Shown in pieces: positions 12,924-30,343 of a stretch of 32,000 nt of DNA. The translations under genes and the position numbers were made by a program. Origin of the DNA: Candidatus Saccharimonadota bacterium (GTDB lineage: Bacteria > Patescibacteriota > Gracilibacteria > Absconditabacterales > Absconditicoccaceae); assembly GCA_965231145.1 (NCBI GenBank), contig OZ246420.1, forward strand, positions 630,001 to 662,000. The letters run 5' to 3'. The notes beneath the pieces are model-generated. The model saw only the letters and a list, made by a program, of their open reading frames with translations, searched no databases and was not told where the DNA came from. Each line of letters opens with the position of its first letter. The first letter of the stretch is position 1.

Positions 12924-12931
12924 AACAAAGG

Positions 12932-13342: not shown

Positions 13343-13354
13343 GGATATTTCTTT

Positions 13355-14530: not shown

Positions 14531-14868
14531 GCAGTAAAATTACACGTATTCGTATTTTTACCCAAATTCATTCGTTATTTATATTTATACACTATAGCCG
14601 TTATTTTTTTTACCTCCTATTTTAAATGTTTTTCTTTTTGTGTTATGTTATCTCTTATCTTTGTTTTACCAAAAAAAACGGATGAAGTAGAATACCCCAC
14701 CCGCTGCATATAAAAGCTACCAACTTTTATATACGGCGCACCCGGAAAAAACGGTTTCCGACTACTTCGCAAAACAGACCCTCAACAAATCTGTCTCACG
14801 CATAAATATTGTAACAATATAAATGTGTAAGTCAAGGTGAGTTGAGGTACAAAACAGAACCTCGACGT

Positions 14869-15087
14869 ATGGAACACCTACACTCAATTGTCGCTCAACT
14901 GAAAGAGCTTGGCTATGGAGCCGACATCTATAAGGTTGAAAATTCATGGTATAATGACGGAGTTCCATTATCTAACCCGCAAGAGGTGTTACATTGTTCG
15001 TGGTATAGTCCAGCCCTAAAAAAGAAAATTTCAGTCTATCGCATTTCCAATGCCACAATAAAAGGAGTTGCAATATCCATAACGTAA
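14869..15087 (+). CDS. small hypothetical protein
   Basis: The ORF track gives 14842-15087. The first ATG is at 14869 (MEHLHSIVAQLKELGYG...), and a strong terminator follows directly. Confidence 0.45.
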   Translation: MEHLHSIVAQLKELGYGADIYKVENSWYNDGVPLSNPQEVLHCSWYSPALKKKISVYRISNATIKGVAISIT

Positions 15088-15114
15088 GAGGGAGCATTTT
15101 AGCTCCCTTTTTTA
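15088..15114 (+). terminator. rho-independent terminator
   Basis: gggagc-atttta-gctccc is followed by tttttt immediately after the 15087 stop. Confidence 0.7.
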
Positions 15115-15250
15115 TTGTCCATACAAAAAGGTTCTTCACAACAAAACACTTGATAATGAGAATAAAGTATGCTGCAAAAACTCGACCACCGCCACACAGA
15201 ATTGTTCACATGCAGAAATATTATTCTCTCCGTATTTAAAACCAAACAAA

Positions 15251-15949
15251 ATGAAAAAACACAATCTACTATTTGCACTAATTATGCTCACGCTTTCATG
15301 CGGCATAGAATCCACACAACACCCAGGTACAGAACAACAGGCGACTACTACGCAAAACAAAACAACCCAAATAGTGTTCATAGCAGACCGTAGTCGGTCC
15401 TTCGTCAAAAAGTACGACCACCCCTCACCGGAACTTTTTAAACCACTCTGTGATAAGATAGTTTCCAGCGGCTGCACACTCGACTTTCGCTATGGTTGTA
15501 TATTCTCCAGCAGCGACCAAGTGCTAGATAGGTACTATGTACCCTACACGCCAGAAGAGAAAAATCAGGGATCGAGCAACCCTTGGCTTGCAAGTGAAAC
15601 GAAGAAGAAAAAAGCCACAGCCCCACTGGCTGACACATGGAGCAATTTTGCGACTTCCGTAAATGAAAAGCTTGCATTGCCCCCATCGAATGGCAGCGAT
15701 ATTAACTCTGCGGTCGGACACGCTCTTTTATCGTTTCAGGAGGGAAAGGCTACCCGCAAAATTCTCTTTCTCTGCACCGATGGAGAAGACAGCAGGGGGC
15801 AACTCCCCTCTATTGGTTCAGACATCGAAGTGATAACCGTGGGACTCTTAGAAGAAAATCACTTAGAGCAGGCTCTCAACACAAACAACGTTAAACACTT
15901 TGAAAACATCCATTCCGCAATTGAATATCTCTATTCGCAAACCTTCTAA
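15251..15949 (+). CDS. von Willebrand factor A (vWA) domain lipoprotein
   Basis: MKKHNLLFALIMLTLSCG is a lipoprotein-type signal with Cys. IVFIADRSRSF is a MIDAS DxSxS motif, and ILFLCTDGEDS is the vWA TDG motif. Confidence 0.6.
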   Translation: MKKHNLLFALIMLTLSCGIESTQHPGTEQQATTTQNKTTQIVFIADRSRSFVKKYDHPSPELFKPLCDKIVSSGCTLDFRYGCIFSSSDQVLDRYYVPYTPEEKNQGSSNPWLASETKKKKATAPLADTWSNFATSVNEKLALPPSNGSDINSAVGHALLSFQEGKATRKILFLCTDGEDSRGQLPSIGSDIEVITVGLLEENHLEQALNTNNVKHFENIHSAIEYLYSQTF

Positions 15950-15959
15950 AATAAATTTT

Positions 15960-16796
15960 ATGACAACAAAGAAACAAACGCTTCAAAGCCACATCATTGA
16001 ACAGATAATAAGCGGTATCGTAAAAATTACAGACAAAATATTTGATCTCTATAGCCAGGCTGCAAAGTGGCACGAAAAAAGCGACATGCTGGAATTTGAA
16101 AACAGGCACACAAATAAAGCAAATACAATGAAAAAAACTGGATGGTTTTTCTTGCTCTTTATTCTAATGCCTCTTATTGCTTGTCTCGACTACACCAGCG
16201 TAGCGTCATTCATAGATTATCTAGCGAAACAAAATGGCGGCATGATTGGCACTTTCATTCAGTTTATAGGGGTCTTTTTCTTCCTATTGATTGAAATCGG
16301 GTTGGGATGGTTCCTCGCTTCTTCTAAAGACAAACCATTGCGTAGGCTATTAGCCATATTGTGCGCAACAATAGTCACCGTGGCACCAAGTGGCTTGGTG
16401 TATGTTACCTACTATATCAACCCGGAAAAAACACAGCTTCTGTTTGTCAAAACACTGGTGCTTATGATTATTTCCATTCTCCTGCATGCACTGATATTTC
16501 TTCTCATTGACGAAATATGGGCTGGCATCCTATTCTATAAGTATCGCCTCAAACGATGGCTACACGATAAAGAGAACCCAGCTAAGCTCATTTCTATAGA
16601 GAAAAGTAAGCTACAAAAAGAGTTCATTGATTTTGATGTGTATGTCGTGGAAGAAAGCGATAACGGAGCACGTCACCTCTACAATAATCGAGCGTGGTAT
16701 TTGAAGGAAAAATTCAAAAAGGGGGACATCGAACACGAAACCGATTTGTCGGACTACAACCCTAATACTTCTTACGCCCCTTCTATTCATTCGTAA
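15960..16796 (+). CDS. multi-pass membrane protein
   Basis: The track ORF 15900-16796 overlaps the previous gene, and an in-frame ATG lies at 15960. Hydrophobic segments include WFFLLFILMPLIACL, GVFFFLLIEIGLGWFLA, LLAILCATIVTVAPSGLVYV and LVLMIISILLHALIFLLI. Confidence 0.55.
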   Translation: MTTKKQTLQSHIIEQIISGIVKITDKIFDLYSQAAKWHEKSDMLEFENRHTNKANTMKKTGWFFLLFILMPLIACLDYTSVASFIDYLAKQNGGMIGTFIQFIGVFFFLLIEIGLGWFLASSKDKPLRRLLAILCATIVTVAPSGLVYVTYYINPEKTQLLFVKTLVLMIISILLHALIFLLIDEIWAGILFYKYRLKRWLHDKENPAKLISIEKSKLQKEFIDFDVYVVEESDNGARHLYNNRAWYLKEKFKKGDIEHETDLSDYNPNTSYAPSIHS

Positions 16797-16806
16797 AAGC
16801 ACACTC

Positions 16807-17163
16807 ATGCTAATCACTCTAACAATCGTAGCACTCGCTTTAGGCCTATTCTTAGGCTATAAGGCGGGTGCATTTTATGAGAAGAAACTCACCTCCACAT
16901 TGGAAGGCAAAATTGAAATACTGGAAAATCAGGTAAGGCTCTTGCAAGAATACTCCGCCCATTGGGCCGCAGAATCCACAAATCGCTATCACCTACTTGG
17001 ACAAGTCACACAGCAGCAAACAACAAATACAACAGCACAAATTCACACAGTCATACAGCTACTGCAAACAATTCAAAAAGAGCAAGGACAAAATCTCAGT
17101 AGAAATGAAAACGAAAAAATCAGTCAGTTAATTAACCAAGCTAAGCAAGTAATCCAAAACTAA
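16807..17163 (+). CDS. small membrane-anchored coiled-coil protein
   Basis: This is a 118-aa ORF with the N-terminal TM segment MLITLTIVALALGLFLGY, followed by heptad-like Gln-rich sequence. Confidence 0.5.
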   Translation: MLITLTIVALALGLFLGYKAGAFYEKKLTSTLEGKIEILENQVRLLQEYSAHWAAESTNRYHLLGQVTQQQTTNTTAQIHTVIQLLQTIQKEQGQNLSRNENEKISQLINQAKQVIQN

Positions 17164-17277
17164 ATTCCCGGAATGGACTGAGTGAGTGCACGGCTATTTA
17201 GTGAACGAGCGAAGGGAAAGGAGGGAATTTATAAGGTTATTGAATGGTAACAATATTCTGTAATGCAGTCGGAGCAA

Positions 17278-17344
17278 GGGTTTTCAGGGTTTTCAAACCG
17301 ACAACCGTGTCGGTCGATTATCGGGTCGGAAGTCGGTTTGAAAA
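17278..17344. promoter_or_regulatory. candidate oriT / recombination-type repeat cluster
   Basis: A tandem gggttttca x2 lies at 17278-17295. A 13-bp perfect inverted repeat is formed by ttttcaaaccgac (17290-17302) and gtcggtttgaaaa (17332-17344). GTCGG occurs three times in between. The cluster sits in the 214-bp gap upstream of the transfer genes. Confidence 0.35.
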
Positions 17345-17377
17345 TCTGCTCTTGCAACAACCCAAAATTTTTATAGT

Positions 17378-17821
17378 ATGCTAACAAGAAACGAATTAGA
17401 ATATTTGATTTATAACACTGTCGATATTGTACCCCAAAGTGCAGACAGTGTTTTTTTAGGTGTCTTTTCTTTGGTGGACAATGTAGAAACGCTCAATCGT
17501 GTTCTCTCTAAAATAACGACATACTATGACAATCTACTTTCAACATTACCGCTATCACTTTCCGAACGTTTAGCCTTACAGGTGCAGCGACCGTTTACAT
17601 TCGAGGAATACAAAGCACTCTTTTCCGTCAGTCAAGAACGACACTTTGCTAACCATGCCATTTTCAGAACGCTATTAATAACCACACGAGCGGAGCAACT
17701 GTTATTTATCAATAACCCCAACCGTGATGACAGTTTTCAGTCGTATAAAAAATTGCTGCAAAACTGGAGCAAGATACATCACCCGCTTATCAACTCACTT
17801 ATATATGGCATTCACGATTAA
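17378..17821 (+). CDS. hypothetical protein (transfer-module associated)
   Basis: This is a 147-aa ORF with no recognisable motif. It overlaps the downstream ATPase gene. Confidence 0.45.
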   Translation: MLTRNELEYLIYNTVDIVPQSADSVFLGVFSLVDNVETLNRVLSKITTYYDNLLSTLPLSLSERLALQVQRPFTFEEYKALFSVSQERHFANHAIFRTLLITTRAEQLLFINNPNRDDSFQSYKKLLQNWSKIHHPLINSLIYGIHD

Positions 17822-19190
17822 CGCACGGGTAACGAAGCAATCATTCCTCAAACACTTTTTGTGTATTGGAGGTAGCGGCAGCGGTAAGACAACCTTACAA
17901 ATGCAACTTCTTTATGATATGATTAGAACGTCAAATAAGGACAAATTTCCTGAAAGTCTTATCATGCTTGAACCGCATGGTGATGCAAGTCTAAGGGCTG
18001 GCTTAATTCGCATTATACCCCGTGAGAGGCTTGTCTTCATGAGTAATGCTATCAATAGGCTTGTCCATAATACAACGGGTGAAAACTACACGTTTACGTT
18101 CAATCCCTTTGAGCATTCAGGAAGTGATGAAGAAAAATACCACTTAACACATGAATTGACTAACGCTTTTACGGAGCTTTTAGAAAGCTCTATGCACTCA
18201 ACGCAAATGGGGCTTAGTGTGCAAATGGCAACAATGCTCTCTCATGCAATAGCAGTTGTAATGGAAAGCGAAGAACCGTCAATCCTTACCCTGCTAAGAA
18301 TGTTCACGCCCGACAATGAAGACCTACTAAGGTTAGGGCAATCTTTTAAGCACCCTTTAGTGCAGCAATTCTATCAGTACCATTTTATGAGTGATAGCTA
18401 TAAACAAACACGCTCCTCTATATATACAAAATTAGCATACTTTGTTTCGGATGCGCAGGTGTATCAGATTTTAGGCACGAAACACAGCACGCTAAAACTC
18501 GATGAATTTATAGAATCAGGCAAAGTTATCATCATCCATACCCCACAGGGAATTTCAACTAACGTGCAGTCTTTTATCGGCAGGCTCATTCTTGCGAGGG
18601 CGTTCAGTTGTGTGTTAAAGAGAGAAGCAATCCCTGTATCAAAAAGGCGCAATGTTTTTGTGTTTGTCGATGAGTTTCAGCAGTACACCACCAAAAGTAT
18701 ATCCCACATTTTGCAGTCAGCAAGAAAATATAACATGGGACTATGCTTGTTCACTCAATCGCTGAAACAAATTTCCGATACAAAGCTGATAAGCTCTATA
18801 CAAACAAATACCAACTGGAAAGCAGTTGGGGTCATTGATGTAGCAAACAGGGAAGCAATGGCAAAGGAAATCGGTTGCACAGCAGAAAGGATTGCTTCCC
18901 TTTTCCCTTTGCAGTTCCTCATCAAACAGGCAGGAAACAACGATTTTTTTCAGTTCACCACAATGCCGTTAGACGATGATTTGTTTTATACCGAAGCCGA
19001 AGCAATACTGCTCTACCAATACCTGATAAAAGACAGCGGGCAGTATGTACCAATAAAGCCTTTCACGTCCACCCCGCCCCCTCCTGCACCTCCCCGTGTT
19101 GAACGTTCTAAAGACATAAAAAACACAGAAAAGAAGACAAAGAAGAACGATGATAACCCATTTAATGAAGGAATTACACCAGCTTTTTAA
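17724..19190 (+). CDS. VirD4/TraG/FtsK-HerA-like P-loop coupling ATPase
   Basis: Walker A is CIGGSGSGKTT and Walker B is NVFVFVDEFQQY. The C-terminus has a PPPPAPP linker and a basic tail. An alternative in-frame start lies at 17805 (MAFTINARV). Confidence 0.6.
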   Translation: MMTVFSRIKNCCKTGARYITRLSTHLYMAFTINARVTKQSFLKHFLCIGGSGSGKTTLQMQLLYDMIRTSNKDKFPESLIMLEPHGDASLRAGLIRIIPRERLVFMSNAINRLVHNTTGENYTFTFNPFEHSGSDEEKYHLTHELTNAFTELLESSMHSTQMGLSVQMATMLSHAIAVVMESEEPSILTLLRMFTPDNEDLLRLGQSFKHPLVQQFYQYHFMSDSYKQTRSSIYTKLAYFVSDAQVYQILGTKHSTLKLDEFIESGKVIIIHTPQGISTNVQSFIGRLILARAFSCVLKREAIPVSKRRNVFVFVDEFQQYTTKSISHILQSARKYNMGLCLFTQSLKQISDTKLISSIQTNTNWKAVGVIDVANREAMAKEIGCTAERIASLFPLQFLIKQAGNNDFFQFTTMPLDDDLFYTEAEAILLYQYLIKDSGQYVPIKPFTSTPPPPAPPRVERSKDIKNTEKKTKKNDDNPFNEGITPAF

Positions 19191-19208
19191 TTTCTAAACT
19201 AACCATGT

Positions 19209-20015
19209 ATGGAACAACTTAATGTACTGCAATGTGAGATTATAGAACATCTTGGAAGGTTTGGCTTTTTGACAGGCTCGCAATTTCAGTTGTTGACGGG
19301 CAAGTCACCAAGTTACATTAGAGAGATGTTAGGCAACCTTAGCAAGAACGGCTATGTGCGTTCATTCCGCAATGCGATAAGCCATGCTATACACACGGAA
19401 AACATGTACGTAAACACGCCACGTTCAGTTGAGTTTTTGATAAGTCACAAAAATATCTTTCCTGATGACATTAAAACAACGACTACGACCGCAGTCGTAA
19501 AAGACTTTTTTCACCGTTACAACACAGTAACGGTATCTATCAAACTATGGCAGTTTCTTACCGCTAACAATATCTCTGTCAATCTTATGTCGACCTACTT
19601 CGATAAAGTAGGCAACCCAAAGAAAGGAACACTGATAGCGAAAACATCAATACCAATCGGTGAGGGGAAAATGCTGATACCCGACATAGTGTTTAAAACA
19701 GGAGCTGCACTATACTTGATTGAAATGTACTGCGATAAGGATACAAAGCGTATCATAAACCAATTGAGCTTACATGCTAAAGCAATAGCATTAGGAACAC
19801 CGGCAAGCAAGTTTGATATACCCAATACAAACCCCTGCATTGTGGCAGTTTTTGAACACTCAGGAATAAAGGAGGCCGTTATGAAGCGTTTAGCAGATAG
19901 CCCAGGCTTTCATCCAATCGCACACCTCTACTTTTTTGCTACGCTTGATGAGGTGAAAAATAATTGCGGTAACGCATGGCATACTATCACAGGCAAAAAG
20001 CTTGTGTTTTCATAA
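19209..20015 (+). CDS. replication-relaxation (Replic_Relax-like) family protein
   Basis: The N-terminal winged-helix pattern LQCEIIEHLGRFGFLTGSQFQLLTGKSPSYIREMLGNLSKNGYVRSF resembles this family. The gene lies immediately downstream of the coupling ATPase. Confidence 0.45.
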   Translation: MEQLNVLQCEIIEHLGRFGFLTGSQFQLLTGKSPSYIREMLGNLSKNGYVRSFRNAISHAIHTENMYVNTPRSVEFLISHKNIFPDDIKTTTTTAVVKDFFHRYNTVTVSIKLWQFLTANNISVNLMSTYFDKVGNPKKGTLIAKTSIPIGEGKMLIPDIVFKTGAALYLIEMYCDKDTKRIINQLSLHAKAIALGTPASKFDIPNTNPCIVAVFEHSGIKEAVMKRLADSPGFHPIAHLYFFATLDEVKNNCGNAWHTITGKKLVFS

Positions 20016-20034
20016 TCCTACTAAATACGAGATC

Positions 20035-20304
20035 ATGCAAGTAGAACTCATCACAAGGCAAGACCTTGAAAACTTTAAAAAGGAGTTACTGGAAGCATTT
20101 GCCACGTTTACAGGCAAGCAAAGCAACACACCAGCAAAGGAATGGCTACGCTCAAAAGAGGTGAAGCAACTACTTAACGTATCTAACGGAACCTTGCAAA
20201 ATTTGCGGATTAAAGGGCTACTCCACCCCACAAAAATCGAGGGGGTGTATTACTATAAGCTATCAGAAATACAAGCATTGCTTAATGCAGGAACAGGTCA
20301 ATAG
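20035..20304 (+). CDS. HTH_17/excisionase-family DNA-binding protein
   Basis: EWLRSKEVKQLLNVSNGTLQNLRIKGLLHPTKIEGVYYYKLSEIQALL is the typical MerR-like excisionase HTH of Bacteroidota mobile elements. The ATG is at 20035, within track ORF 20002-20304. Confidence 0.65.
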   Translation: MQVELITRQDLENFKKELLEAFATFTGKQSNTPAKEWLRSKEVKQLLNVSNGTLQNLRIKGLLHPTKIEGVYYYKLSEIQALLNAGTGQ

Positions 20305-20587
20305 CGATATGTTACAAGCCTTTTTTCGGGCTGTAAGAGAAGATGCACGGCTCTCAATCCCGCATCTATCGCTCTATTTCGTTTTGTATTACCAGTTTGT
20401 CAAAAATGGTAGTCAAAATCCAATTAGCGTGAATAGACGTGTAATCATGGACTTCTGCAAAATTCGATCTACGGCAACCTACCACAAGACGGTAAAAGAC
20501 CTGCACAATTTTGGATATATCAATTACTGTCCCTCATATCATCCAGCTATTGGTAGTCATATTTTCTTATACTTTTCAAATCCATGA
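20285..20587 (+). CDS. mobile-element-associated winged-helix protein (Bacteroidota type)
   Basis: HLSLYFVLYYQF...QNPISVNRRVIMDFCKIRSTATYHKTVKDLHNFGYINYCPSYHP matches a family routinely found beside HTH_17 genes in Bacteroidota transposons (recalled from memory). It has a TGA stop and an alternative ATG at 20309. Confidence 0.55.
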   Translation: MQEQVNSDMLQAFFRAVREDARLSIPHLSLYFVLYYQFVKNGSQNPISVNRRVIMDFCKIRSTATYHKTVKDLHNFGYINYCPSYHPAIGSHIFLYFSNP

Positions 20588-20687
20588 AATGCTTAACTGA
20601 TAAGGGTTTCAGCCAAAATTGTTCTAATTTTATTTTCCTGTCTCACCTCTTTTTCGTACTTTTATACATAGTTCTTTCGCAACTCAG

Positions 20688-20933
20688 TTCAGTGAGTTAT
20701 TCGGTGAGTAAATAAAAAGGCTTGCCAGTTTTCATTGATAGTCAATACATTAGCCGTTGGGTTCGACTCCCGCCGGCTCCACTAAGACACTATCAAAAGA
20801 AGCTAAAAAGCCTTGAAATCATTGATTTTAGGGCTTTTTTGTTTTTTGCCTTTATCAAAGTTTTCATTCTTGCCCAAACTTTCAGTGAGTGATTCAGTGA
20901 GTAAAAAAGTTTAGCAAATTTACTCACTGAAAA
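20688..20933. other. unsplit attP-like recombination region with arm-type repeats
   Basis: An imperfect direct repeat, ttcagtgagt-tattcggtgagtaaa (20688-20719) and ttcagtgagt-gattcagtgagtaaa (20881-20909), is joined by an inverted copy tttactcactgaaaa (20919-20933). These flank a tRNA/tmRNA-3'-end-like core. The region lies between the xis-like genes and the integrase. Confidence 0.5.
20753..20784 (+). other. tRNA/tmRNA 3'-end-like fragment (att core), not a gene
   Basis: gccgttGGGTTCGACTCCCGCCGGCTCCActa contains a T-loop and a 3' acceptor strand resembling the tmRNA/tRNA-Ala terminus (compare E. coli ssrA ...GGGTTCAACTCCCGCCAGCTCCACCA). No 5' half lies upstream. A hairpin with a T-run follows at 20805-20840. 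Confidence 0.6.
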
Positions 20934-21029
20934 CGCTGCAAATCATTGATAATGAACATGTTTAGATACTAAACATCTTGTTTGCGAAAGGCTACAAATT
21001 GAATTTTGTAACCGTAAAAATCAAAGCAT

Positions 21030-22268
21030 ATGTTAGAGCAAACGTTAGGTGTTCTTTTCTATCAGAAAAAACCAAAAGGCTACACTAAAGGCAGTGTGCC
21101 AGTTTACTTGCGAATTACCGTTAATGGTATTCCCAAAGAGATAGCAACAAAGCAAGTGTGTGAACCTGAACGCTGGAACAGCCATGCACAACGAGCAAAG
21201 GGAACAAATGAAGCAAGTAAATCACTCAATGCGTTTTTAGATACGCTTGAAAGGCAAGTACACGAAGCAAGGCGAACACTCATTGAGGGCCAAACGCCAA
21301 TAACCGCAGAAGCATTAAAGAACGTTCTTACTGGGCAAGGTGAACGCCCCCGGATGCTGTTAGAAATCTTTAAGCAGCACAACAAACAATTGAGTGCATT
21401 GGTGAATACCGAATTTGCACCCGCAACCATTAAACGGTATGATACCACCTACGAACATGTACGGGCATTCCTGCTGTTGAAATACAAGGTTACTGACATA
21501 GACATTAAAAGCCTGTCATTTTCTTTTGCCTCTGATTTTGAGTTTTATCTCAAAAGTGAAAAGAAGTGTAACCATAACAGCACTATAAAGTATATCGGCA
21601 ACGTACGCAAAATTGTAAACTACTGCCTTAAAAGTGGATGGCTGCAAAGAGACCCGTTTTTCGGCTTTAAGATGAATAAAAGAGAAGTAGCAAGGGAATA
21701 CCTTAGCCAGGAGGAAATTCAGGCATTAACCGACAAGAAATTCACCATAGACCGATTAAGCCAGGTGCGGGATATATTCCTCTTTAGCTGCTACACAGGA
21801 TTGGCTTTTATAGACGTGTTCCAGCTTACACCTTCACGGATAGCAAAGGGCATTGATGGTAATCAATGGATTTTTACGTTCCGGCAGAAAACGGACACAC
21901 CTACACGCATTCCGCTTTTACCACAGGCACAAGAAATTTTACTCAAATACCAAGCCAATCCTAAGTGTATAAATGAGGGTAAAGTTTTGCCAATCCTAAG
22001 TAATCAGAAAATGAATGCCTATCTGAAAGAGGTTGCTGATTTATGTGGCATTACTAAGCCCCTCACCTTTCACATTGCCCGCCATACGTTCGCTACTACC
22101 GTCACATTAAGCAATGGAGTGCCAATAGAGACGGTAAGTAAGATGCTAGGGCATAAGAGCATTAAGATAACGCAGCATTATGCAAAGATCATAGACAGGA
22201 AAGTAAGTGAGGATATGTTACTGCTACAAACACGGCTACATGGCGCAAAAAAGAGTCCAGCGATTTAG
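21030..22268 (+). CDS. tyrosine site-specific integrase (Bacteroidota type; standard code, no TGA)
   Basis: This is a 412-aa ORF with HIARHTFATTV (HxxR) and LGHKSIKITQHYAKI (catalytic Tyr). The N-terminus VYLRITVNGIPKEIATK is arm-binding-domain-like. It has a TAG stop. Confidence 0.85.
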   Translation: MLEQTLGVLFYQKKPKGYTKGSVPVYLRITVNGIPKEIATKQVCEPERWNSHAQRAKGTNEASKSLNAFLDTLERQVHEARRTLIEGQTPITAEALKNVLTGQGERPRMLLEIFKQHNKQLSALVNTEFAPATIKRYDTTYEHVRAFLLLKYKVTDIDIKSLSFSFASDFEFYLKSEKKCNHNSTIKYIGNVRKIVNYCLKSGWLQRDPFFGFKMNKREVAREYLSQEEIQALTDKKFTIDRLSQVRDIFLFSCYTGLAFIDVFQLTPSRIAKGIDGNQWIFTFRQKTDTPTRIPLLPQAQEILLKYQANPKCINEGKVLPILSNQKMNAYLKEVADLCGITKPLTFHIARHTFATTVTLSNGVPIETVSKMLGHKSIKITQHYAKIIDRKVSEDMLLLQTRLHGAKKSPAI

Positions 22269-22328
22269 CTGGACTTACATAATTTAGTATAGTATAACGA
22301 CATAAGTACAAAATCCTTTTTGTATGAC

Positions 22329-25300
22329 TTATTTCAAGTTTGCTTTAAGAACTTCAATTTTTTTTGACAAGGATTTATTAACTATTTTATCGGCATTTTC
22401 CTTTTCTGTTTGCTTCTTTTTAAATTCTAACAGCATCTTTTTCTGTTCGTCTATTGGAATTATAGGGATATTAAATGCTTCGATGTCTGTTTGATTGATA
22501 CTTGGATAAGATGATTTAGGCATCTTAGCCTCCATTTGTTTCATTAAATCATCAGAAAACATAAAAAGGTAATAGAGAAATTCTGTCAGGTATAATTTAT
22601 CGTCTTTTGATTTAATCAATGCAAATCCGGTAGAGAAAATAGCATCAGTCGGAACATCCTTTAAATAGGCAAAACCTCTTAAATATGGTCTAACGGTTGA
22701 AATAATCACCGTGTCATTTTCTGCTATTCTTCTTGCTCTTGATGGTGCATCAATTCCTTTCACCTTTTTAGCAAAAGAAATTATACCCGTTCCCTTCCCT
22801 ACGCTATCAATATCAATGTAACTAAATTCATCTTCGATGTATTTTTTAGCAGGATCAATTGTTTTATCATTAATTGCAAATAGCTGTCCAATTTTATTTG
22901 ATTTATTGTATTTTATATATGTTTGATTGATTTTACCTTTAATAAATTCAATTGCTTTTGTAGATGCTTCAATTGCTTTTAATTCTTCTTTCTCAATTAG
23001 ATTTATTTCTTTCTGAATTTTAGTTTGTGTCGTCGGTGAAGGTAAAGGAATTTTAATCCTGAGTAAATCGTCAAGATAAACATGAGGCTGTGCTTGACCT
23101 CTTTGTAATGAATATAGCTCAGATTGAATGGCCTTAAGATACAGATATATCAGTTTTGTAGAAATTTTTTTCTCTTCAAGAGACTGAATGGTAGTACAAT
23201 CAGAAGCAAAAATTGGGACTTCAAAATAGTTAGCGAATCCAGCATATGCTCCAGAAGCACTAACAGTAATTACATTGCCTTTTCTGTTTGATACGTTGTG
23301 ATAATATGCTAACTCTTGGCCACCCGCTATAACTGGAACTGAGCCATGAATTGTTTCATCTTGAGTAATTGAAGTGCCTTTTTTGAGCTCAGCTATTTCG
23401 CTTATTGGAGTCAGATTAGTTGTGTTCCAGATTTGCTCAAAGTTCATTTTTTTTTTACTAGAGACCGAAATGCTCTTATCAAATTCAGCCCTATCAAAAG
23501 TCAGCAAATCTATTAAGTTGCTACGGCTAATGTTATGCTGAAGTGATTCTGGTATATCAATATCAAAATCCCCTAAAAAGGCTTTGTAAATGTAAGTGCT
23601 TGCTTTTTCTGGATTCTCAAAAATGTGAGGATCGAAGAGCTTTGTACATTCTTCTATACTTTTTCCCTTTTTAATTGAATGAATGCCTTCACTGCCTCTA
23701 CGAGTACTGAATTCATATCCTAAGAATTGTTTTTCAGCATCCTTCGCCCCTGTCTTCATTAAAACGACTTTCTGCGAATATGCCAAGACAAAGTAAAATA
23801 TCTTATCCTGTTCTAACTCTAAAACCCTATTCCAAAATTCACCGTCAGTCTTGGCTTTTACCTTCTTTCTATACTCTTTATACAGATCATGTGATTTGAT
23901 ATTGTCGTTGGGTTGTTTCTTAAGTAGTGTTACATAATCACTAAATTTAATCCCTTCCCAAGCATGAATCAGGTACTTAGTTATCGGATTTTCGACGTTA
24001 TTGATAGCAATATCCTTGAAATCTGCGACAGCTCTTTTGACTAATTCAAACGTATTTATTGAGTCGTAATTGTTTCTTCTTCTTAAGAATAGAATGACCG
24101 TATTTGTGTCAGTAGCCATAAAAGTATTACTACCTAATTCAACAATACTCACAATATCAAAGTATTGTAGAATAATTTCTCTTGATTTGGTATAAATACC
24201 TCCATTACTTAAAATCGTTTTCGGAAGAATTATAGAGGCTATACCGCCATCTTTTAATAACTGCTTTGTACGTTCTACAAATAAGCATTCAATTTCACTA
24301 CTTTGATCCGTCAATTTATCATACAGCTCAAAGTCATCCTCAGTATAAAATTTTCTTGCATTATTTTTAAATGCCGAAACAGAATAAGGTGGATTTGATG
24401 CTACTATATCAAATTGCTTATTCTCTTTTGGAAAATCCTTATCTGTTTTTTTTAGGAGACCCTTATATTCTTCTGTCTTTGAGAAATTTCCAAGCCCATC
24501 AGTATGTATAATCTGCGCTAGCCCATCTCCATGGAGGTAACAACCTACCTTACCGACTTTAACTAAACGATAATCTTTTTCTATTCCATAAATATACTGG
24601 TAAGCCCAATCAAAGTGATCTGTTTTCCATGTTGAGATCTTTTTTGCGGTACTATCCATTAAGTATGACTTAGAATCTGTATTATCTATTATACTTTGGA
24701 CTACGTGCATACTCTCCGTAATGAAATGACCGCTACCTGCCGCGTAATCAATTATAGTTGGTAATAAATTATCCTTTTCACCTTTATTTAGTTTGTCCGC
24801 AACAATTTTATCTAAGGGAATACTTTTAATTATGAATTGCGCAATAGGGACGGGGGTAAAATACTGTCCCGATTCCTGTTTTAACCCGGTAGTAAGTAGG
24901 AGCTCAAAAAAATCGCTGAGATATTGTTGTTTCTTTGTATAGCGAATTTTAAATCCTTGCAATAATTCAACGACTTCCTTTACTACTTTAGCATTCTCAA
25001 TAAATGAATCATCATTAAAGACTTCCTTAATAGCAAACTCGTTGTTTTTTTTCAATCTAATCTCGGTAAACTCATCTAGTATTTGCTTCTTTGTGATCGC
25101 CGGCAATTGACCATATTTTTTTTCAAAATCCACATCTGAAATATCAGTAACAGATTTATCTAAAAACTCCTTCATGCCCTTTCTATAAAGGTCGGTTAAA
25201 CGCTTTTGGAAAGAGATATTGTCATCAGGTGGATAATCTATACCTTCATATTTATATGAAGTATAAAACCATTGAAAGGCAAGTTCATCATTGGGTTTAG

Positions 25301-26108
25301 TTACTTTTTCATCATATATTTTACAAAGAAAGAGTGTAAATATTTTATTGAAGGCATTGGGCTTATCAGACACTACATTGTGCCTAAGTATTTCTAAAAA
25401 TTGGTTGAAGATAAAACTACTATCTTCCTGTTTAATGTCCTTTAAATTATTAGGAGTTAGTGCCTTGCTTTGAAAATCGTAGGCGTTTACCCAGGCATCA
25501 AACACGCCGTTATTCTTAGGCAGTTTGTTCCAACGATCGTAAAAATCTTTTACATTCCCTGTCTGTCTATAATCATCTTCAACTTTGATAATTTCATTGC
25601 GATACTGCAATTTCCCTTTATCTAAGTATGAGGAATATAACATCAATATATCCGCATTCTTGTCTTGTTGAAAATAAGTGAACAGTTGACCCCCGTCTTT
25701 TAATATTTTCTTAAACTCTTTATCAAATTCTTGCCCGTGCGTTTTACATTCAATCATTAAATATGCTGTACCGTCTTCACGCAATACTAGAACATCAAGT
25801 ATGCCACTAGTTCCATGACCTGTAGCCCACGTTTTTTCAAGATGTATAGATTTGGGCTTGTATCCTTTCGTGAGTAGCCTATCTACACACTCTAAAACAA
25901 CGAAATTTTCGGGATCTTTAAAATTACATGTCGTTTTTCTACCGATAGCTATATCACTACCGTAATCAATTGACTCACTAGCAAAGTCAATTTTTATTTT
26001 ATAGTCTCCGTGATTAGGATATTTCTTAATCCAAGAATCCTGCACTCCGTTTTCGAGAGCGAATCCCAAAGCTTTAAGTAATCCTTTTATGTCGAGATTT
26101 GCTTTCAT
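22329..26108 (-). CDS. single-polypeptide R-M-S restriction-modification enzyme (Type IIB/IIG-like, AloI/CjeI-type architecture)
   Basis: This is a 1259-aa ORF. The N-terminus has a PD-(D/E)xK-like motif, GILDVLVL...AYLMIECK. The gamma-class N6-adenine methyltransferase motifs are IIDYAAGSGHF (I) and IVASNPPYS (IV). The C-terminus has two HsdS-like target-recognition domains (...VPVIAGGQELAYYH... and ...TVIISTVRPYLRGFAYL...) separated by coiled-coil spacers. Confidence 0.75.
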   Translation of the reverse strand: MKANLDIKGLLKALGFALENGVQDSWIKKYPNHGDYKIKIDFASESIDYGSDIAIGRKTTCNFKDPENFVVLECVDRLLTKGYKPKSIHLEKTWATGHGTSGILDVLVLREDGTAYLMIECKTHGQEFDKEFKKILKDGGQLFTYFQQDKNADILMLYSSYLDKGKLQYRNEIIKVEDDYRQTGNVKDFYDRWNKLPKNNGVFDAWVNAYDFQSKALTPNNLKDIKQEDSSFIFNQFLEILRHNVVSDKPNAFNKIFTLFLCKIYDEKVTKPNDELAFQWFYTSYKYEGIDYPPDDNISFQKRLTDLYRKGMKEFLDKSVTDISDVDFEKKYGQLPAITKKQILDEFTEIRLKKNNEFAIKEVFNDDSFIENAKVVKEVVELLQGFKIRYTKKQQYLSDFFELLLTTGLKQESGQYFTPVPIAQFIIKSIPLDKIVADKLNKGEKDNLLPTIIDYAAGSGHFITESMHVVQSIIDNTDSKSYLMDSTAKKISTWKTDHFDWAYQYIYGIEKDYRLVKVGKVGCYLHGDGLAQIIHTDGLGNFSKTEEYKGLLKKTDKDFPKENKQFDIVASNPPYSVSAFKNNARKFYTEDDFELYDKLTDQSSEIECLFVERTKQLLKDGGIASIILPKTILSNGGIYTKSREIILQYFDIVSIVELGSNTFMATDTNTVILFLRRRNNYDSINTFELVKRAVADFKDIAINNVENPITKYLIHAWEGIKFSDYVTLLKKQPNDNIKSHDLYKEYRKKVKAKTDGEFWNRVLELEQDKIFYFVLAYSQKVVLMKTGAKDAEKQFLGYEFSTRRGSEGIHSIKKGKSIEECTKLFDPHIFENPEKASTYIYKAFLGDFDIDIPESLQHNISRSNLIDLLTFDRAEFDKSISVSSKKKMNFEQIWNTTNLTPISEIAELKKGTSITQDETIHGSVPVIAGGQELAYYHNVSNRKGNVITVSASGAYAGFANYFEVPIFASDCTTIQSLEEKKISTKLIYLYLKAIQSELYSLQRGQAQPHVYLDDLLRIKIPLPSPTTQTKIQKEINLIEKEELKAIEASTKAIEFIKGKINQTYIKYNKSNKIGQLFAINDKTIDPAKKYIEDEFSYIDIDSVGKGTGIISFAKKVKGIDAPSRARRIAENDTVIISTVRPYLRGFAYLKDVPTDAIFSTGFALIKSKDDKLYLTEFLYYLFMFSDDLMKQMEAKMPKSSYPSINQTDIEAFNIPIIPIDEQKKMLLEFKKKQTEKENADKIVNKSLSKKIEVLKANLK

Positions 26109-26366
26109 TAGGTTATTACTAGTTAAATGATATAAATATCATTATGAAAAAACGGCAAAAAAGCAATAAATAATTTCTCTTCGCGACAGACCAGAATTAA
26201 GATTAATTTGAAATTTCACGCCCAACACTACACTGTCAGTTTTAAGCATAAATTACTATATTTGCAAACTTTTGCGAAAATATACTTTTTTTTGGTCAGA
26301 AAGACAAATGTGCGATAAGTATTGCTTTTGAATGGGTACAAAAACCCCGATTTTTCTTATAAAACG

Positions 26367-26388
26367 AGCTCCCAGCAAACCGGGAGCT
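26367..26388 (-). terminator. possible terminator hairpin downstream of 26512-26808
   Basis: The stem agctccc / gggagct has an 8-nt loop. On the minus strand it is followed by cgttttat. The T-run is weak. Confidence 0.3.
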
Positions 26389-26511
26389 GTGTGGTGTACG
26401 ACCCTTTCCCCTAAAGTTCCTGTCTGGTGGCATTCCATAAAGACAACTGCCACGTAGAGTTTGTTTGCTTTGCCGAAGGTTATTCGCACCAGTGCGCACT
26501 GTTTACCGTCT

Positions 26512-26808
26512 TTAGTATTCTTCTGCTAAAAGCAAGGTGCAGTAGTTGTATTCTTCTTCAAATTCCCCGCTTGAAATCATTTTCTTGTCAAGCTGGTCTA
26601 TTAAAAACAACTTTCTGCCGTGCTCATCAGTATAGACTTGCAGATAGTCTATGCCATTTTTTTGTTTAGCAAAGGTTTTTACGTCTTGGTAAATCGAGAT
26701 AATCTCCTCGAAATGTAACGTTTCAAAAACGCCCTTTGTCATGTAGAACTTACCAGAAAAGAAATACTCCTGGTCGTTCCGTTCTTGTGGTTGCCTTTCC
26801 CATGCCAT
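26512..26808 (-). CDS. small hypothetical protein
   Basis: This is a 98-aa ORF (alternative ATG at 26742, MTKGVFETLHF...). It has no in-frame TGA and a TAA stop. No family was recognised. Confidence 0.45.
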   Translation of the reverse strand: MAWERQPQERNDQEYFFSGKFYMTKGVFETLHFEEIISIYQDVKTFAKQKNGIDYLQVYTDEHGRKLFLIDQLDKKMISSGEFEEEYNYCTLLLAEEY

Positions 26809-26854
26809 TGTATTTTGTTTTGGTTTCTAATATCCCTCTTTTCAGAGGGTGTGC

Positions 26855-27250
26855 TTATTTTTCGGGTGCAAGCAGTTCGTTTATCGCTTCTCCTATTTTT
26901 TTTCTTACAGCTTCGTTTTTGATTTCGCCTAAAAGCTTACCAAGTCTGTTTATTGAAACAGCGCGAATCTGGCGCAATCTTAGGTAAGAGTTTTGGTAAA
27001 GCTTGTTATCATTATCCTTTAAAAGAATGAGATCGTGCTTATCTTTTAGCTTTTCACCTAATGCAGATGTAAGGGGTATAACGGTAACATCTTCGCCTCC
27101 CATGCTTTCCGGCGTTATGACAAGAGCAGGTCTTATGCCGGTTATCTCGCTACCGATGGTTGACGAAAAATTGACCGTGTAGATCTGTCGTTTCTTTATT
27201 GATTGCTGCTTGACGAGAGGTTTCGTATTTAGTCTTAGTTGCGTAATCAA
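26855..27250 (-). CDS. PemK/MazF-family toxin (possibly extends to ATG 27394 if TGA is read as Gly)
   Basis: RQIYTVNFSSTIGSEITGIRPALVITPE...VTVIPLTS matches the MazF/PemK core. The upstream 32-codon ORF (27394-27299) is in the same frame and separated by a single TGA. Confidence 0.65.
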   Translation of the reverse strand: MITQLRLNTKPLVKQQSIKKRQIYTVNFSSTIGSEITGIRPALVITPESMGGEDVTVIPLTSALGEKLKDKHDLILLKDNDNKLYQNSYLRLRQIRAVSINRLGKLLGEIKNEAVRKKIGEAINELLAPEK

Positions 27251-27452
27251 TCCTTCAACGTGCGCTGTTAGATTGTGTTCCTTGGGATTTTTGTTTCAAA
27301 CAAGTTCATCCCACAATGCTATTTTGTAACTTTTATTAAACACATCTTTGTCTGCTCCTTTTAAGCGCACTTCAATTTCATAATCTCTCAACATGGGCGT
27401 TCCGGTTATAAGGTAAAATAATAGTCGTGCATAGCTTCTGCCCATATCCCGT

Positions 27453-28526
27453 TTATTTTACGTCTTTTATTGTTGTTGAATGATTGCCAAGTAGATAAAG
27501 TAACAGCGTATGTAAAGTGGTGATGGTTGTTTGCTGTTCTTGCTGAGTGATCGGAACACCCTGTAGTAAATCACTTCACAATGCCTGAGTCTTTTGCCTT
27601 ACAAACTCTGAATTTGAATGACTGTATAGGCTGGTTACGGCTAGGTTACTATGTCTCATTTTTCGTTTCACATCATGTATGCTTCGACCATCTTCAAGTA
27701 GGTGTGTACATAAACTATGACGAAACAAATGAGAGTACACATTCTGTAGTATTCATGCGTCTGCTGCTATTTTTTTCAATGCGATGTTCAATTTTTGTTC
27801 GGTTAGTTTTGTGGCTGCTCCTCTTTCATAGAGGGTGAAGATGTACTTGAATTTCGTGTCCGGGAAAATGTTGTTTCTTATTACCAGGTATTCATTGAGT
27901 TTGTCGGCAGCAGTTTCGCTAAAAGTTATTTCTGCCTCTTTGTTACCTTTTCAAACAATCGTTCATTTAAGCTGCGAGATGTTTATATTTTCATAGGTAA
28001 GTCATCTTAGCTCGAAATTACGCAGTCAGGTTGTGTAGAGCATTCGAACTATCGCACGCCGTAGATAGGCAGAGTAAATCGCATGTTTTCTGCCCGACAA
28101 ATTTGCCTCGCTTACGTTTTGCTCCAGTTGTTTCATTAGTAGACTTACTTCGTCTTTTGTCAGATATGCGACCGTTCTTTTAGTTACTTTGCAATTTGGT
28201 ATATCAGCAGGAACGAGTTTATCTAGTTTCGCATTATTACTTAGCCGTTTAATGTAGGCCGTTATGTGTGTCATTATTTTATTGAGATGTGCGTTGCCAA
28301 ATGGCTTTACCTCTCCCTTTCCCGCTTTTTTACTTTTCTTGTTTTGTAGCCGTCTATAAAACACACGCATATCAGTTGCTTTTAGTGCTGTTGTTTCAGT
28401 ATTTCCGTATAGTTCTGAAAAGTATGATAAGGACAAATTGACCTTCCTAAGAGTAGCCTCCTTGTTTCATCTCTCTAGCTTCAGGTAGGCATTGTATTTG
28501 CCTAGCGTGTCAATTACTGTACTCAT
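27453..28526 (-). CDS. tyrosine integrase written in TGA=Gly code (357 aa)
   Basis: The frame runs ATG 28526 to TAA 27455-27453 with 7 in-frame TGA. These restore LYTT-G-LRNFELR-G-L (Arg box), LK-G-TIV-G-KGNKEA and ADA-G-ILQNVYSHLFRHSLCTHLLEDG (HxxR), followed by MRHSNLAVTSLYSH (catalytic Tyr). The N-terminus GKYNAYLKLER-G-NKEATLRKVNLSLSYF is a SAM-like domain. Confidence 0.85.
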
Positions 28527-28870
28527 GCTGGCTCCTCTATTAGAGTGTAAATCTTTACTTCGATTTTCTCTCTTACGTAACTTATTGCCTCCTGTGCTGC
28601 TTGTTCAAGGCGTGGCTTTAAGGCCTTATCAGCCCGCACTGTTGTTATGCAGTTATAGCAAATGTCTAACCCGAACTTCTGCAGTATATGTCCTTCGAGT
28701 TCTTCTTGTGATTCATTTACACAGTCTTGACACATGCTCTCCTTGCAACAGAAACAGATTTGTATTGCTTCTTTTTTAGCCTTGTTAAACTTTTGCTTTT
28801 TACCCCAACGCTGGTGAGCATTTCGGCAAAATGTGCAAACGTCTATCTCTGCTAAAGCTAGCTTAGTCAT
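28514..28870 (-). CDS. Cys-rich (zinc-ribbon-like) small protein upstream of the integrase
   Basis: The 115-aa ORF has multiple CxxC pairs (CTFC, CFCC, CQDC, CYNC). Its TGA at 28525-28523 overlaps the integrase ATG. Read as Gly, the protein ends 3 codons later at TAA 28516-28514. Confidence 0.5.
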
Positions 28871-28961
28871 GGACTACATCATTACAGGGGTAAAATAATG
28901 TAGTCCATTTCTGATATTATTTCTACAGAACGTTCGTTCTATATTCAAGTGAAAATATCAG
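28871..28961. promoter_or_regulatory. nested palindromes in the leader/promoter of the Cys-rich/integrase operon
   Basis: ggactacat (28871-28879) and atgtagtcc (28898-28906) abut the start codon. ctgatattatttc (28911-28923) pairs with gaaaatatcag (28951-28961), and these surround the perfect palindrome gaacgttc (28928-28935). Confidence 0.35.
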
Positions 28962-29181
28962 ATCAGGATTACATTTTATTGCGTTCTGAAACAACACCCC
29001 AACTTATAGTTGACTCGTCTTTTGTTACCCTGACGAAACCGCACCTATTTTCATGCTGCTATGTGCAGTTGTTTACAAGTACGATAAAATTATCTTTCGG
29101 CATAAAAAAAACTTGAGTGTCATTTGACAATCAAGCAGTCTGTACCTTTTATTATGACTAAGTTCACTACGAACAGATTTT

Positions 29182-29199
29182 ATGGTGGGCCTAACTGGA
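29182..29199. repeat. tRNA-proximal att repeat
   Basis: atggtgggcctaactgga is identical to 11925-11942 and forms the 3' terminal 17 nt of the tRNA(CAU) gene. Confidence 0.85.
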
Positions 29200-29259
29200 C
29201 TTGAACCAGTGACCCAGCGATTATGAGTCGCTTGCTCTAACCAACTGAGCTATAGGCCC
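29183..29259 (-). tRNA. tRNA with CAU anticodon, elongator type, probably tRNA-Ile2 (lysidine); Met not excluded. CCA encoded
   Basis: Cloverleaf: GGGCCTA/TAGGCCC acceptor, AGCGA-CTCATAA-TCGCT anticodon arm, ACTGG-TTCAAGT-CCAGT T arm. The anticodon and T arms closely resemble E. coli ileX as I recall it. Confidence 0.8.
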
Positions 29260-29316: not shown

Positions 29317-30144
29317 TTACTCCAATACGAACTGATCACCTATATTCTCCAATGCTAATCTGATACTCGAATGCTTATCCAAAGCCTTTTTCAGCCTTTC
29401 TCTTGGCTCATGAAAATGAGCCTTATCCAAACGAAATGTCTCAAAATGCACCGGTATAAACCACTTTGCGTTCATATGTTCTGCCATAGTAACAGCCTGC
29501 TCTGGATTACAGTGATTGTCTATCCACGGATCGTATGATCCGATAGGCATGATAGCCACATCCGCGCGATCCGTAAGCTCCCTATAGGCTTCTGTATAGG
29601 CGGTATCTCCCCCGAAAACGATATTTTTTCATTGGTAGGAAATAAGATAACTGTTGTGACCCTTCGCTTTATGGTGTCACTTGGTATAACTTCTATAACG
29701 CTCCCACGGTCAGATAGCTCACCAGTGGTCAGTTTCTCCTGCACGGATATGGAGTCCATCCACGACCACATCTTCACCTCGTTCCACTTCGGTGACGGAT
29801 TTTACTCCTTTGTATGATTTCAAAAGGTGTTTTGTATTTCTTGGACAGATCACATGAAGCTGATCAGGAAATCTCTTAAAAAGTTCCCTGAGCGTCTGTT
29901 TATCCCAATGATCCATATGCGCATGAGAAAGTAATACATAGTCGAGCTGGGGTATTTCCTCTACGCGAAAAGCTGCAGGGGTAATTCTTTTTATCCCAAC
30001 TTTCCACTTCCCGATCAGCACCCCCAACTTTTCAAAAAGTAATGGATCAGTAATGATCCACTTACCGTACATATTGATGAGTACGGTAGAATGACCTGCC
30101 AGCGCGAAACTTATATGATTATCATTCCAATTATATTTATGCAT
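29317..30144 (-). CDS. MBL-fold metallo-hydrolase (275 aa with TGA=Gly)
   Basis: ORFs 29719-30144 and 29317-29559 share a frame and are joined by a TGA-containing segment. Motifs are LLSHAHMDHWD (HxHxDH), GHNSYLISYQ-G-KNIVFGGDTAY and VAIMPIG. Confidence 0.75.
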
Positions 30145-30269: not shown

Positions 30270-30342
30270 TCGGTCCCACGGGGAATTGAACCCCGATTGA
30301 CGGATTGAAAATCCGCTGTCCTAACCATTAGACGATGAGACC
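30270..30342 (-). tRNA. tRNA-Glu (UUC), no encoded CCA
   Basis: GGTCTCA/TGGGACC acceptor, GCGGA-TTTTCAA-TCCGT anticodon arm, CGGGG-TTCAATT-CCCCG T arm. Confidence 0.8.
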
Positions 30343-30343
30343 A

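Follow-up and report, generated by a model that had tools for sequence, protein, structure and literature searches.

An altered genetic code is commonly viewed as a barrier that shuts out gene flow. Among the mobile elements that bear on this view are recoded temperate phages residing in standard-code hosts, whose integrases are depleted of recoded stops and whose switch is a suppressor tRNA; TGA is read as Trp in these phages, except in a few that use code 25 (TGA=Gly) and are attributed by the authors to hosts with that code (Borges et al., bioRxiv 10.1101/2021.08.26.457843). TGA-free, "code-11-compatible" phages are targeted by spacers of Gracilibacteria/Absconditabacteria and of Bacteroidetes, and the prophages detected in code-25 genomes were without exception TGA-dense (Liu et al. 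2023, PMC10746230). Bacteroidota are also reported to donate genes frequently to Patescibacteria (PMC12455944). The locus described here is an island within a 32,000-nt stretch of DNA from a code-25 bacterium of the Absconditicoccaceae (hereafter the window: positions 630,001 to 662,000 of contig OZ246420.1, assembly GCA_965231145.1). Its tRNA-proximal tyrosine integrase gene, Int*, is interrupted by in-frame TGA codons, and it carries a second, TGA-free integrase gene, Int2. The island appears to be built for both sides of the code boundary, and we consider it, with moderate confidence, to be a dual-host integrative element whose second integration/toxin module is translatable only in code-25 cells. 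A full-text literature search returned no described non-phage element with a TGA=Gly integrase cassette in standard-code genomes, nor paired attachment (att) site states across codes.

A preliminary description of the window had taken Int* for a functional gene with seven TGA codons read as Gly, and this is borne out. The TGA codons (20, 167, 175, 188, 192, 258 and 317) are the only internal stops, with no TAA or TAG among them, and when they are read as Gly the product matches Pfam Phage_integrase (PF00589) at 89.7 bits (cut-off 27.1). The catalytic set R169, K193, H266, R269, H292 and Y301 is kept, each residue being invariant or nearly so in the alignment. Four of the TGA codons lie opposite Gly of distant standard-code XerC/D relatives: those in the Arg box (codon 167, TGLR), the GKGNK turn (192) and AGI (258), as had been proposed, and also codon 20 (LERG). 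More generally, Gly accounts for 40% of the residues facing TGA across 11 Int* sequences (25 columns with TGA), its background frequency being 3.6%, and Trp is negligible among them. Matches to the NCBIfam XerA, XerD and XerC models fall below their equivalog cut-offs, so Int* is not a Xer orthologue. A code-4 reading (TGA=Trp) was considered and ruled out, as TGA faces Gly rather than Trp both here and in the 3-dehydroquinate synthase of the host, where TGA codons align with Gly of PDB 5eks (e.g. LALGGG). The protein database holds only 8 close Int* homologues (38-62% identity), which show Trp exactly at the conserved-Gly positions because those proteins were called in code 4; for two of them (P0001 and P0006) the DNA locus does not translate to the query protein in table 11. 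Standard gene callers shred the genes of this cassette, which leaves the family nearly invisible in protein databases.

The DNA on both sides of the island is in code 25. Host-side open reading frames (ORFs) are long only when TGA is read through, and the flanks contain 110 TGA in 3787 codons (2.9%), or 45% of their Gly-type codons. Within the island, 15 ORFs (Int2, a type IIG restriction-modification (R-M) gene and 13 others) have no in-frame TGA in 4279 codons, whereas host usage predicts about 124 (P ~2e-55). Int2 and the R-M gene are thus TGA-free, as first described. The wider claim that all other cargo is TGA-free holds for these 15 ORFs; it fails for a MazF-like ORF (MazF*) that has one TGA and belongs with the integrase. 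The GC content of the integrase module is, as had been noted, like that of the cargo (0.385-0.41) and not like that of the host (~0.30).

Int* is one of three adjacent genes written in this way. MazF*, downstream, matches Pfam PemK_toxin over residues 85-190 (61.8 bits), and its family has 35 TGA against 96 GGN codons in 11 copies, with TGA aligned with Gly (e.g. STLGDD vs STL*DD). ZnF, which would be extended by two codons in code 25, lies upstream of Int* in all nine other copies whose sequence covers that position, and its family has 13 TGA against 30 GGN codons; it has no Pfam match. Profile searches showed no recognisable antitoxin upstream of MazF* and no antitoxin family match for ZnF or for p98, the gene on the other side of MazF*. 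TGA makes up a similar share of the Gly-type codons in the three families (Int* 0.28, MazF* 0.27, ZnF 0.30), amounting to 51 TGA in 12 copies of Int*, 35 in 11 of MazF* and 13 in 10 of ZnF, with no internal TAA or TAG and no frameshift. Between copies, including those resident in Bacteroidota, the proportion of nonsynonymous differences (pN) is 0.14-0.28 and that of synonymous differences (pS) a saturated 0.69-0.87. With no other stops or frameshifts and pN far below pS, the cassette genes are not decaying pseudogenes. For Int* itself, the possibility of a decayed standard-code pseudogene, raised in the preliminary description, was ruled out because TGA is its sole internal stop, stands at Gly positions and is accompanied by strong purifying selection.

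The recoded module ends abruptly. p98 has no TGA in 47 Gly-type codons (8 copies), against a TGA share of 28% next door (P=2e-7). In the window, 26369-26832 is 82% identical in DNA to the Bacteroidota locus L012 and p98 is 87% identical in protein, whereas Int* is only 43% identical between the two. The code boundary therefore coincides with a recombination breakpoint (26832-26855), which makes attP*, ZnF, Int* and MazF* a discrete, swappable cassette. The p98 family is a small family of proteins of about 100 aa (191 representative clusters). It also occurs without the TGA cassette on the standard-code elements L124 and L125, which carry Rep3 and SprT-like genes (L124 also CBASS and RVT_1 genes), which places p98 in a larger stock of genes found on mobile elements. 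In L009 (Bacteroidetes UBA6221) the p98 region is present again as a partial copy (17598-17887), some 5.5 kb downstream of the first, which may be the remnant of a tandem or earlier element. Downstream of the cassette in L008, a frame of 219 codons (15620-16279, plus strand) is open when 13 TGA are read through, and may be either a genuine recoded gene or an off-frame artefact.

In-frame TGA at conserved Gly positions, the mark of genes native to code-25 bacteria, is found in the cassette genes. The Int* family is nevertheless not confined to code-25 genomes, its six closest genomic relatives being in Bacteroidota. These six came from a scan of one genome per GTDB species, with patterns unable to match TGA at Gly positions, and their records are titled Chitinophagaceae, Bacteroidetes or Flavipsychrobacter; one is a complete 3.3-Mb chromosome (CP075895). 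Every one of the six Int* copies has 1-9 in-frame TGA, and the adjacent ZnF (upstream) and MazF* (downstream) are TGA-bearing too. Their neighbours are standard-code (table 11) ORFs of up to 1767 aa, including type IX secretion system (T9SS) Por_Secre_tail proteins (L009, L010 and L012), cytochrome oxidase (L010) and, in several loci, defence genes. Further cassette copies with the same TGA pattern occur on the standard-code metagenome contigs L003, L107 and L122, and in all the cassette lies between standard-code genes in more than 8 independent Bacteroidota assemblies. A scan of metagenome_contigs with the Int* alignment gave, among the matches listed, only generic XerC/D relatives (<=32% identity) and no family member.

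The cassette does not travel alone in these genomes. The pairing of Int2 and Int* with p98, MazF* and ZnF recurs in the Bacteroidota contigs L003 and L122, and the element backbone in Bacteroidota/Chitinophagaceae comprises Int2, defence cargo, p98, MazF*, Int*, ZnF and sometimes a coupling-protein block. Circularly permuted, the gene order of the window island is also that of L008, L107 and L122. Since the mosaic is present in Bacteroidota, the codes were mixed before the element reached this host. The mosaic of coding and GC within the window had suggested that a dedicated, resident code-25 carrier picked up foreign (Bacteroidota) DNA, second integrase included, inside the recoded host; this now seems very improbable, as the same mosaic, partners and order in standard-code Bacteroidota (L003, L008, L107 and L122) contradict it, the GC of the Int* cassette is element-like and not host-like, and the attP of Int2 is intact and adjoins backbone genes. 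What holds of that view is that the island outside the integrase module lacks TGA and stems from Bacteroidota, but the two integrases belong to the backbone of one element family and are not carrier and cargo. In L008 (Chitinophagaceae UBA2793), a 441-aa large serine recombinase (1325-2684) abutting tRNA-Arg(CCT) stands in the place of Int2, and the standard-code integration module thus appears to be exchangeable.

The two integrases are found in reciprocal states in the two kinds of host. In the Bacteroidota copies examined (L007-L012, L107 and L122), a fragment of a tRNA 3' end lies about 280 nt upstream of ZnF, with no tRNA gene. Two types of fragment occur: 1) the fragment of L008 is identical to the att core of the window and the 3' end of its tRNA-Met (18/18), with close variants in L007 and L107; 2) the other clade carries the 3' end of the tRNA-Glu of the window, GGTTCAATTCCCCGTGGGACCG, matched at 22/22 positions in L010, L011 and L012, 21/22 in L009 and 18/18 in L122. 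On the 5' side of the Met-type core stands GTGG(T/C) in L007 and L008 and TTGGC in L107 (TGG being common when aligned), while GTGGT stands at the attR of the window and is absent from the tRNA. The stretch from att fragment to ZnF in L007, L008, L107 and L110 can be aligned with the P arm of the window, and in L008, L107 and L122 the coupling-protein block is directly upstream of the Int* att fragment. As only a tRNA fragment is present in Bacteroidota and an intact tRNA plus repeat in the window, the attP of Int* is unrecombined there and recombined here.

Int2 shows the opposite arrangement. The att core upstream of it in the window matches the 3' end of the intact transfer-messenger RNA (tmRNA) gene of L003 at 24/24 positions, and is surrounded by arm-like repeated motifs (20688-20950) conserved in L003, L006 and L122. 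In L003, the only Bacteroidota contig that displays the Int2-tmRNA junction, the tmRNA gene (9389-9756; Rfam RF00023, 134.6 bits) is followed by Int2 from position 10001, with host genes beyond the tmRNA. Both this junction and the domains of Int2 are those of a tmRNA-targeting Bacteroidota island. The window has no tmRNA gene (Rfam, ARAGORN), only the 24-nt fragment contiguous with backbone genes, and the contig of L122 ends exactly at the tmRNA fragment. The positions of these att sites and of the other features of the window are given in Table 1.

Table 1. Features of the island and its immediate surroundings (window coordinates)
Feature	Position	Strand	Description	Support
attR core	11925-11942		18-nt direct repeat ATGGTGGGCCTAACTGGA, displaced copy of tRNA-Met 3' end; left island end	Exact match to 29182-29199
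P' arm and variable accessory genes	11943-14530		Helix-turn-helix (HTH) gene 12055-12336 (-); signal-peptide-like ORFs 12438-12923 (+) and 12932-13342 (+); 391-aa HTH protein 13355-14530 (-)	Pfam HTH_31/HTH_3/HTH_19
Conserved backbone block	15251-20587	+	232-aa gene, 278/298-aa membrane protein, 118-aa and 147-aa genes, coupling protein, 268-aa gene, HTH_17 gene, 100-aa gene	
Int2 att core, unrecombined	20759-20782	+	24-nt copy of Bacteroidota tmRNA (ssrA) 3' end, ~250 nt upstream of Int2	
Int2	21030-22268	+	412-aa tyrosine integrase, Bacteroidota type; 0 TGA	Pfam Arm-DNA-bind_5, Phage_int_SAM_5, Phage_integrase
Type IIG R-M-specificity enzyme (defence cargo)	22329-26108	-	Single chain, 1259 aa; 0 TGA	PADLOC REase_MTase_IIG 778.8 bits; Pfam N6_Mtase, Eco57I, Methylase_S
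p98	26512-26808	-	Conserved 98-aa protein; first TGA-free gene beside recoded module	
MazF*	26855-27445	-	196 aa; conserved N-terminal extension (85 aa) and PemK/MazF toxin domain; 1 in-frame TGA in window copy	
Int* (tyrosine integrase)	27453-28526	-	357 codons, ATG to TAA; 7 in-frame TGA	
ZnF	28523-28870	-	115 aa, four Cys pairs (CxxC/CC motifs); TGA stop overlaps Int* start (ATGA)	
P arm, attL core and target tRNA	28871-29259	-	attL core 29182-29199; intact tRNA-Met(CAT) 29183-29259	ARAGORN, Rfam
Host tRNA-Glu(TTC)	30270-30343	-	3' end is the att core of second Int*-module clade, Bacteroidota-resident	

The island so bounded spans 17.26 kb (11925-29199) between the exact copies of the 18-nt repeat, and its layout is the canonical one of a tRNA-targeting island, with Int* proximal to an intact tRNA-Met and the 3' end of that tRNA repeated at the other boundary. 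Two Logan assemblies (ERR4405440, a 34.7-kb contig, and ERR4405441) contain the same Int2 protein in the same surrounding gene order, and the Int2 and R-M proteins are also found on an NCBI contig of 1,107,293 bp. This agreement between independent assemblies indicates that the junctions of the island are no assembly accident. The sequences are metagenome-derived throughout, and a fusion of code-25 and Bacteroidota DNA during assembly or binning could in principle mimic the mosaic; we give this almost no credence, given these contigs, the code-25 flanks on both sides with an exact att duplication, and the independent Bacteroidota assemblies, a complete chromosome among them, in which the cassette is embedded. 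The target tRNA, called Met(CAT), is at most 88% identical to the tRNA genes on Mesomycoplasma, Serratia and E. coli records (PLSDB). It may be closer to tRNA-Ile2 (lysidine-modified CAU) than to elongator Met.

The dual-host model draws on the codon pattern, the purifying selection, the homologies and the reciprocal att configurations, all of which are observed. The island is an integrative, defence-carrying and probably mobilizable element, and its occurrence is best explained by a main reservoir in standard-code Bacteroidota (Chitinophagaceae and relatives). It would possess two integration systems. The first, Int2 with an attP mimicking the 3' end of Bacteroidota tmRNA, is TGA-free and would be used in Bacteroidota, where Int2 would place the element in ssrA, or a serine recombinase would place it elsewhere. 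The second would be the swappable cassette of attP*, ZnF, Int* and MazF*, with an attP core mimicking the 3' end of a code-25 tRNA (Met here, Glu in the sister clade). In a standard-code cell translation would stop at the first TGA and leave the cassette silent; a cell of Gracilibacteria/Absconditabacteria type, reading TGA as Gly, would produce ZnF, Int* and MazF*, and Int* would bring about insertion of the element at the tRNA gene. It is this second, tRNA-inserted state that the window would represent. The distribution of TGA could then be a footprint of gene use: p98, the cargo, Int2 and the coupling-protein block would be needed in Bacteroidota and so be TGA-free, and genes selected only in code-25 hosts would tolerate TGA, or use it as a gate. 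That the cassette is silent in Bacteroidota, its expression being gated by the code, is what we infer from these data. Transfer would probably occur when an episymbiont or predator takes up DNA of the Bacteroidota that serve as its host. ZnF may act as an excision or directionality factor, and MazF* and p98 may serve addiction or growth control.

A stronger form of this model is possible, although we advance it only tentatively: the genetic code itself would be a host-recognition switch, TGA silencing the second integrase, its helper and the toxin in Bacteroidota and these being turned on in the TGA=Gly patescibacterium that lives or preys on that host. In that case the cassettes, with att cores that mimic tRNAs, would serve as natural tags tying uncultured Gracilibacteria/Absconditabacteria to their hosts, so that uncultured code-25 Patescibacteria could be paired with their Bacteroidota partners from sequence alone. 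They would likewise document a regular movement of DNA over a code boundary commonly taken for a barrier, and the island shows how defence systems such as type IIG R-M reach reduced genomes.

The cassette could instead be dead baggage, having evolved in code-25 bacteria and now a non-functional passenger in Bacteroidota through occasional one-way spill-overs, outside any regular two-way life cycle, not gated and not yet decayed. The cassette is indeed untranslatable in the standard code, and its swappability relative to the backbone and the small number of known copies, with a single code-25 integration, would fit. We think this unlikely, because at least 12 copies in standard-code or unknown contexts are free of TAA, TAG and frameshifts, pN is far below pS even among the Bacteroidota-resident copies, and the attP cores are intact and exact. 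Moreover, p98, Int2 and the coupling-protein block accompany the cassette in both host types, which means that cassette and standard-code backbone travel together and must stay readable in both codes.

Another alternative keeps the cassette functional but places its function within Bacteroidota: TGA would silence toxin and integrase until a suppressor tRNA, brought for instance by a recoded phage, released them for abortive infection or escape, and the code-25 integration would be a side effect. The cassette does lie within defence islands (SMODS/AAA_13, radical SAM, Abi_C, R-M) and does include a MazF-type toxin, and Bacteroidetes are hosts to recoded phages that have suppressor tRNAs (Borges et al., bioRxiv 10.1101/2021.08.26.457843). 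This is nonetheless quite improbable in our estimation, since TGA in the cassette alternates with GGN and faces Gly of the catalytic core rather than Trp, the residue inserted by the known TGA-recoded gut phages, since no suppressor tRNA was found within 10 kb, and since no role is left for an integrase with a tRNA-type attP that matches, and is used in, a code-25 genome. Nor does the island look like a recoded phage, which would have suppressor tRNA or release-factor machinery and phage structural genes: no tRNA(UCA) was found in the window, Pfam revealed no phage genes in it, and scans of viral_contigs (IMG/VR) with Int* and p98 gave no relatives, which argues against a phage.

Several points weigh against the dual-host model. 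Only one code-25 integration has been seen, the window itself, and no Int* was found in other code-25 genomes among the GTDB representatives, which include few such genomes and were scanned with the TGA-blind patterns mentioned above. In some copies TGA occurs only once (L012, full-length, and L111, from which a partial ORF was recovered), such that leaky read-through is conceivable in them. For a return route from the code-25 cell to Bacteroidota there is no evidence. The search for a tRNA(UCA) suppressor, which was negative, covered the window and the neighbourhood within 10 kb in 12 relatives. If the tRNA-Met and tRNA-Glu of Chitinophagaceae shared the att cores, the argument for a code-25-specific target would be weakened; PLSDB searches for these tRNAs returned no Bacteroidota records, and ARAGORN found too few such genes over all loci to compare cores. 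Exact-core searches in viral_contigs returned phage tRNA arrays and five 18-mer matches that resemble coincidence and not att sites. Lastly, the backbone genes seem to avoid TGA as a terminator: 1/36 end in TGA (most in TAA) against 8/48 flanking standard-code ORFs, as counted in 15251-22268 and 26512-26808 of the window and in homologues in L003, L006, L008-L012, L107, L110, L112, L122, L124 and L125. This fits dual-code compatibility and is suggestive, but the difference is not significant (Fisher p=0.07).

The remainder of the island has clear affinities with Bacteroidota. A protein search with Int2 gave at least 8000 candidates at E<=1e-20, the best listed being 59-84% identical and those that are named belonging to Bacteroidota; the Bacteroidota copies are 82-84% identical to it in protein (84% for the homologue in L003). 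The R-M gene is 77% identical in protein to that of L006 and 86% identical in DNA over 3146 nt (23038-26179), this 3.1-kb relative being on an ENA contig with T9SS genes. Its 3' part (22.3-23.0 kb; 22232-23038) does not align with L006 and probably represents a swapped target-recognition domain. The backbone block has no in-frame TGA and is syntenic with L008, L107 and L122 at 33-56% amino-acid identity. Its coupling protein (17727-19190) is VirD4/TrwB-like, matching Pfam TrwB_AAD_bind, TraG-D_C and T4SS-DNA_transf above their cut-offs, its HTH_17 gene (20002-20304) is excisionase-like (Pfam), and its 268-aa gene has a weak, below cut-off match to Replic_Relax (E=0.013). Coupling protein aside, profile scans of the island proteins identified no relaxase, mating-pair or type IV secretion system (T4SS) genes.

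At the left end of the island, the accessory region also lacks in-frame TGA, and a homologue of its HTH gene is present in L122. Three of its 4 genes end in TGA; in all, four island genes do so (at 12055-12057, 13340-13342, 13355-13357 and 20585-20587), and code-25 read-through would lengthen them by about 36, 12, 9 and 3 codons, a sign of recent arrival. Just outside this end, a host-coded large serine recombinase (10056-11760, plus strand) lies by tRNA-Gly(TCC) (11761-11837, minus strand). It consists of two overlapping frames (10056-10592 and 10523-11760) with a GC of 0.31, 17 in-frame TGA and a faint match to Pfam Recombinase, and may belong, as a gene that is frameshifted or in two parts, to a different mobile element written entirely in code 25. 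Beyond the other end, between tRNA-Met and tRNA-Glu, a metallo-beta-lactamase-fold gene (29317-30144, minus strand) has a GC of 0.42 overall and 0.42 at third codon positions (~0.30 and 0.22 in the host) and TGA in only 4 of 18 Gly-type codons; it has the look of a gene acquired earlier and since partly ameliorated. Neither downstream of the tRNA-Glu of the window nor beside this gene was a second tRNA-Glu core found, and nothing thus points to an old Glu-type insertion.

Compared with described systems, the island is closest in layout to the integrative mobilizable elements and genomic islands with tyrosine integrases that target tRNA or tmRNA genes, such as P4-type islands and the NBU-type elements of Bacteroides. 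Like them it has an integrase beside an intact tRNA or tmRNA gene with a distal repeat of its 3' end, an HTH_17 excisionase-like gene, a coupling-protein gene and defence or R-M cargo. Unlike them it has two integrases and two different attP, used alternately in two phyla, one integrase and its neighbours are written with TGA=Gly, and no relaxase or mating-pair genes accompany the coupling protein. As for the island-stabilising MazF/PemK modules, a PemK_toxin gene is directly beside an integrase here too, but MazF* has an N-terminal extension and no recognisable upstream antitoxin, and the toxin gene is interrupted by TGA where its neighbour p98, also found without the toxin, is not.

With the TGA-free phages of Liu et al. 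(2023), the island shares a link to both code-25 bacteria of the candidate phyla radiation and Bacteroidetes, and its backbone and cargo are, like those phages, readable in both codes. Those phages are uniformly TGA-free, whereas this is an integrated, non-phage element that combines a TGA-free backbone with a three-gene TGA cassette and for which both integrated states are documented. With the recoded temperate phages of Borges et al. it has in common residence in standard-code genomes, a subset of genes with in-frame stops and the idea of code-gated expression. There, late and lysis genes are recoded with TGA=Trp; here it is the integrase itself that is recoded, with TGA=Gly, there is neither a suppressor within 10 kb nor any phage gene, and the proposed switch is a change of host. 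Should the dual-host model hold, this would be the first non-phage case in which stop-codon recoding partitions gene expression, and would do so without a suppressor tRNA, the mirror image of the recoded temperate phages, whose integrases avoid the recoded stops.

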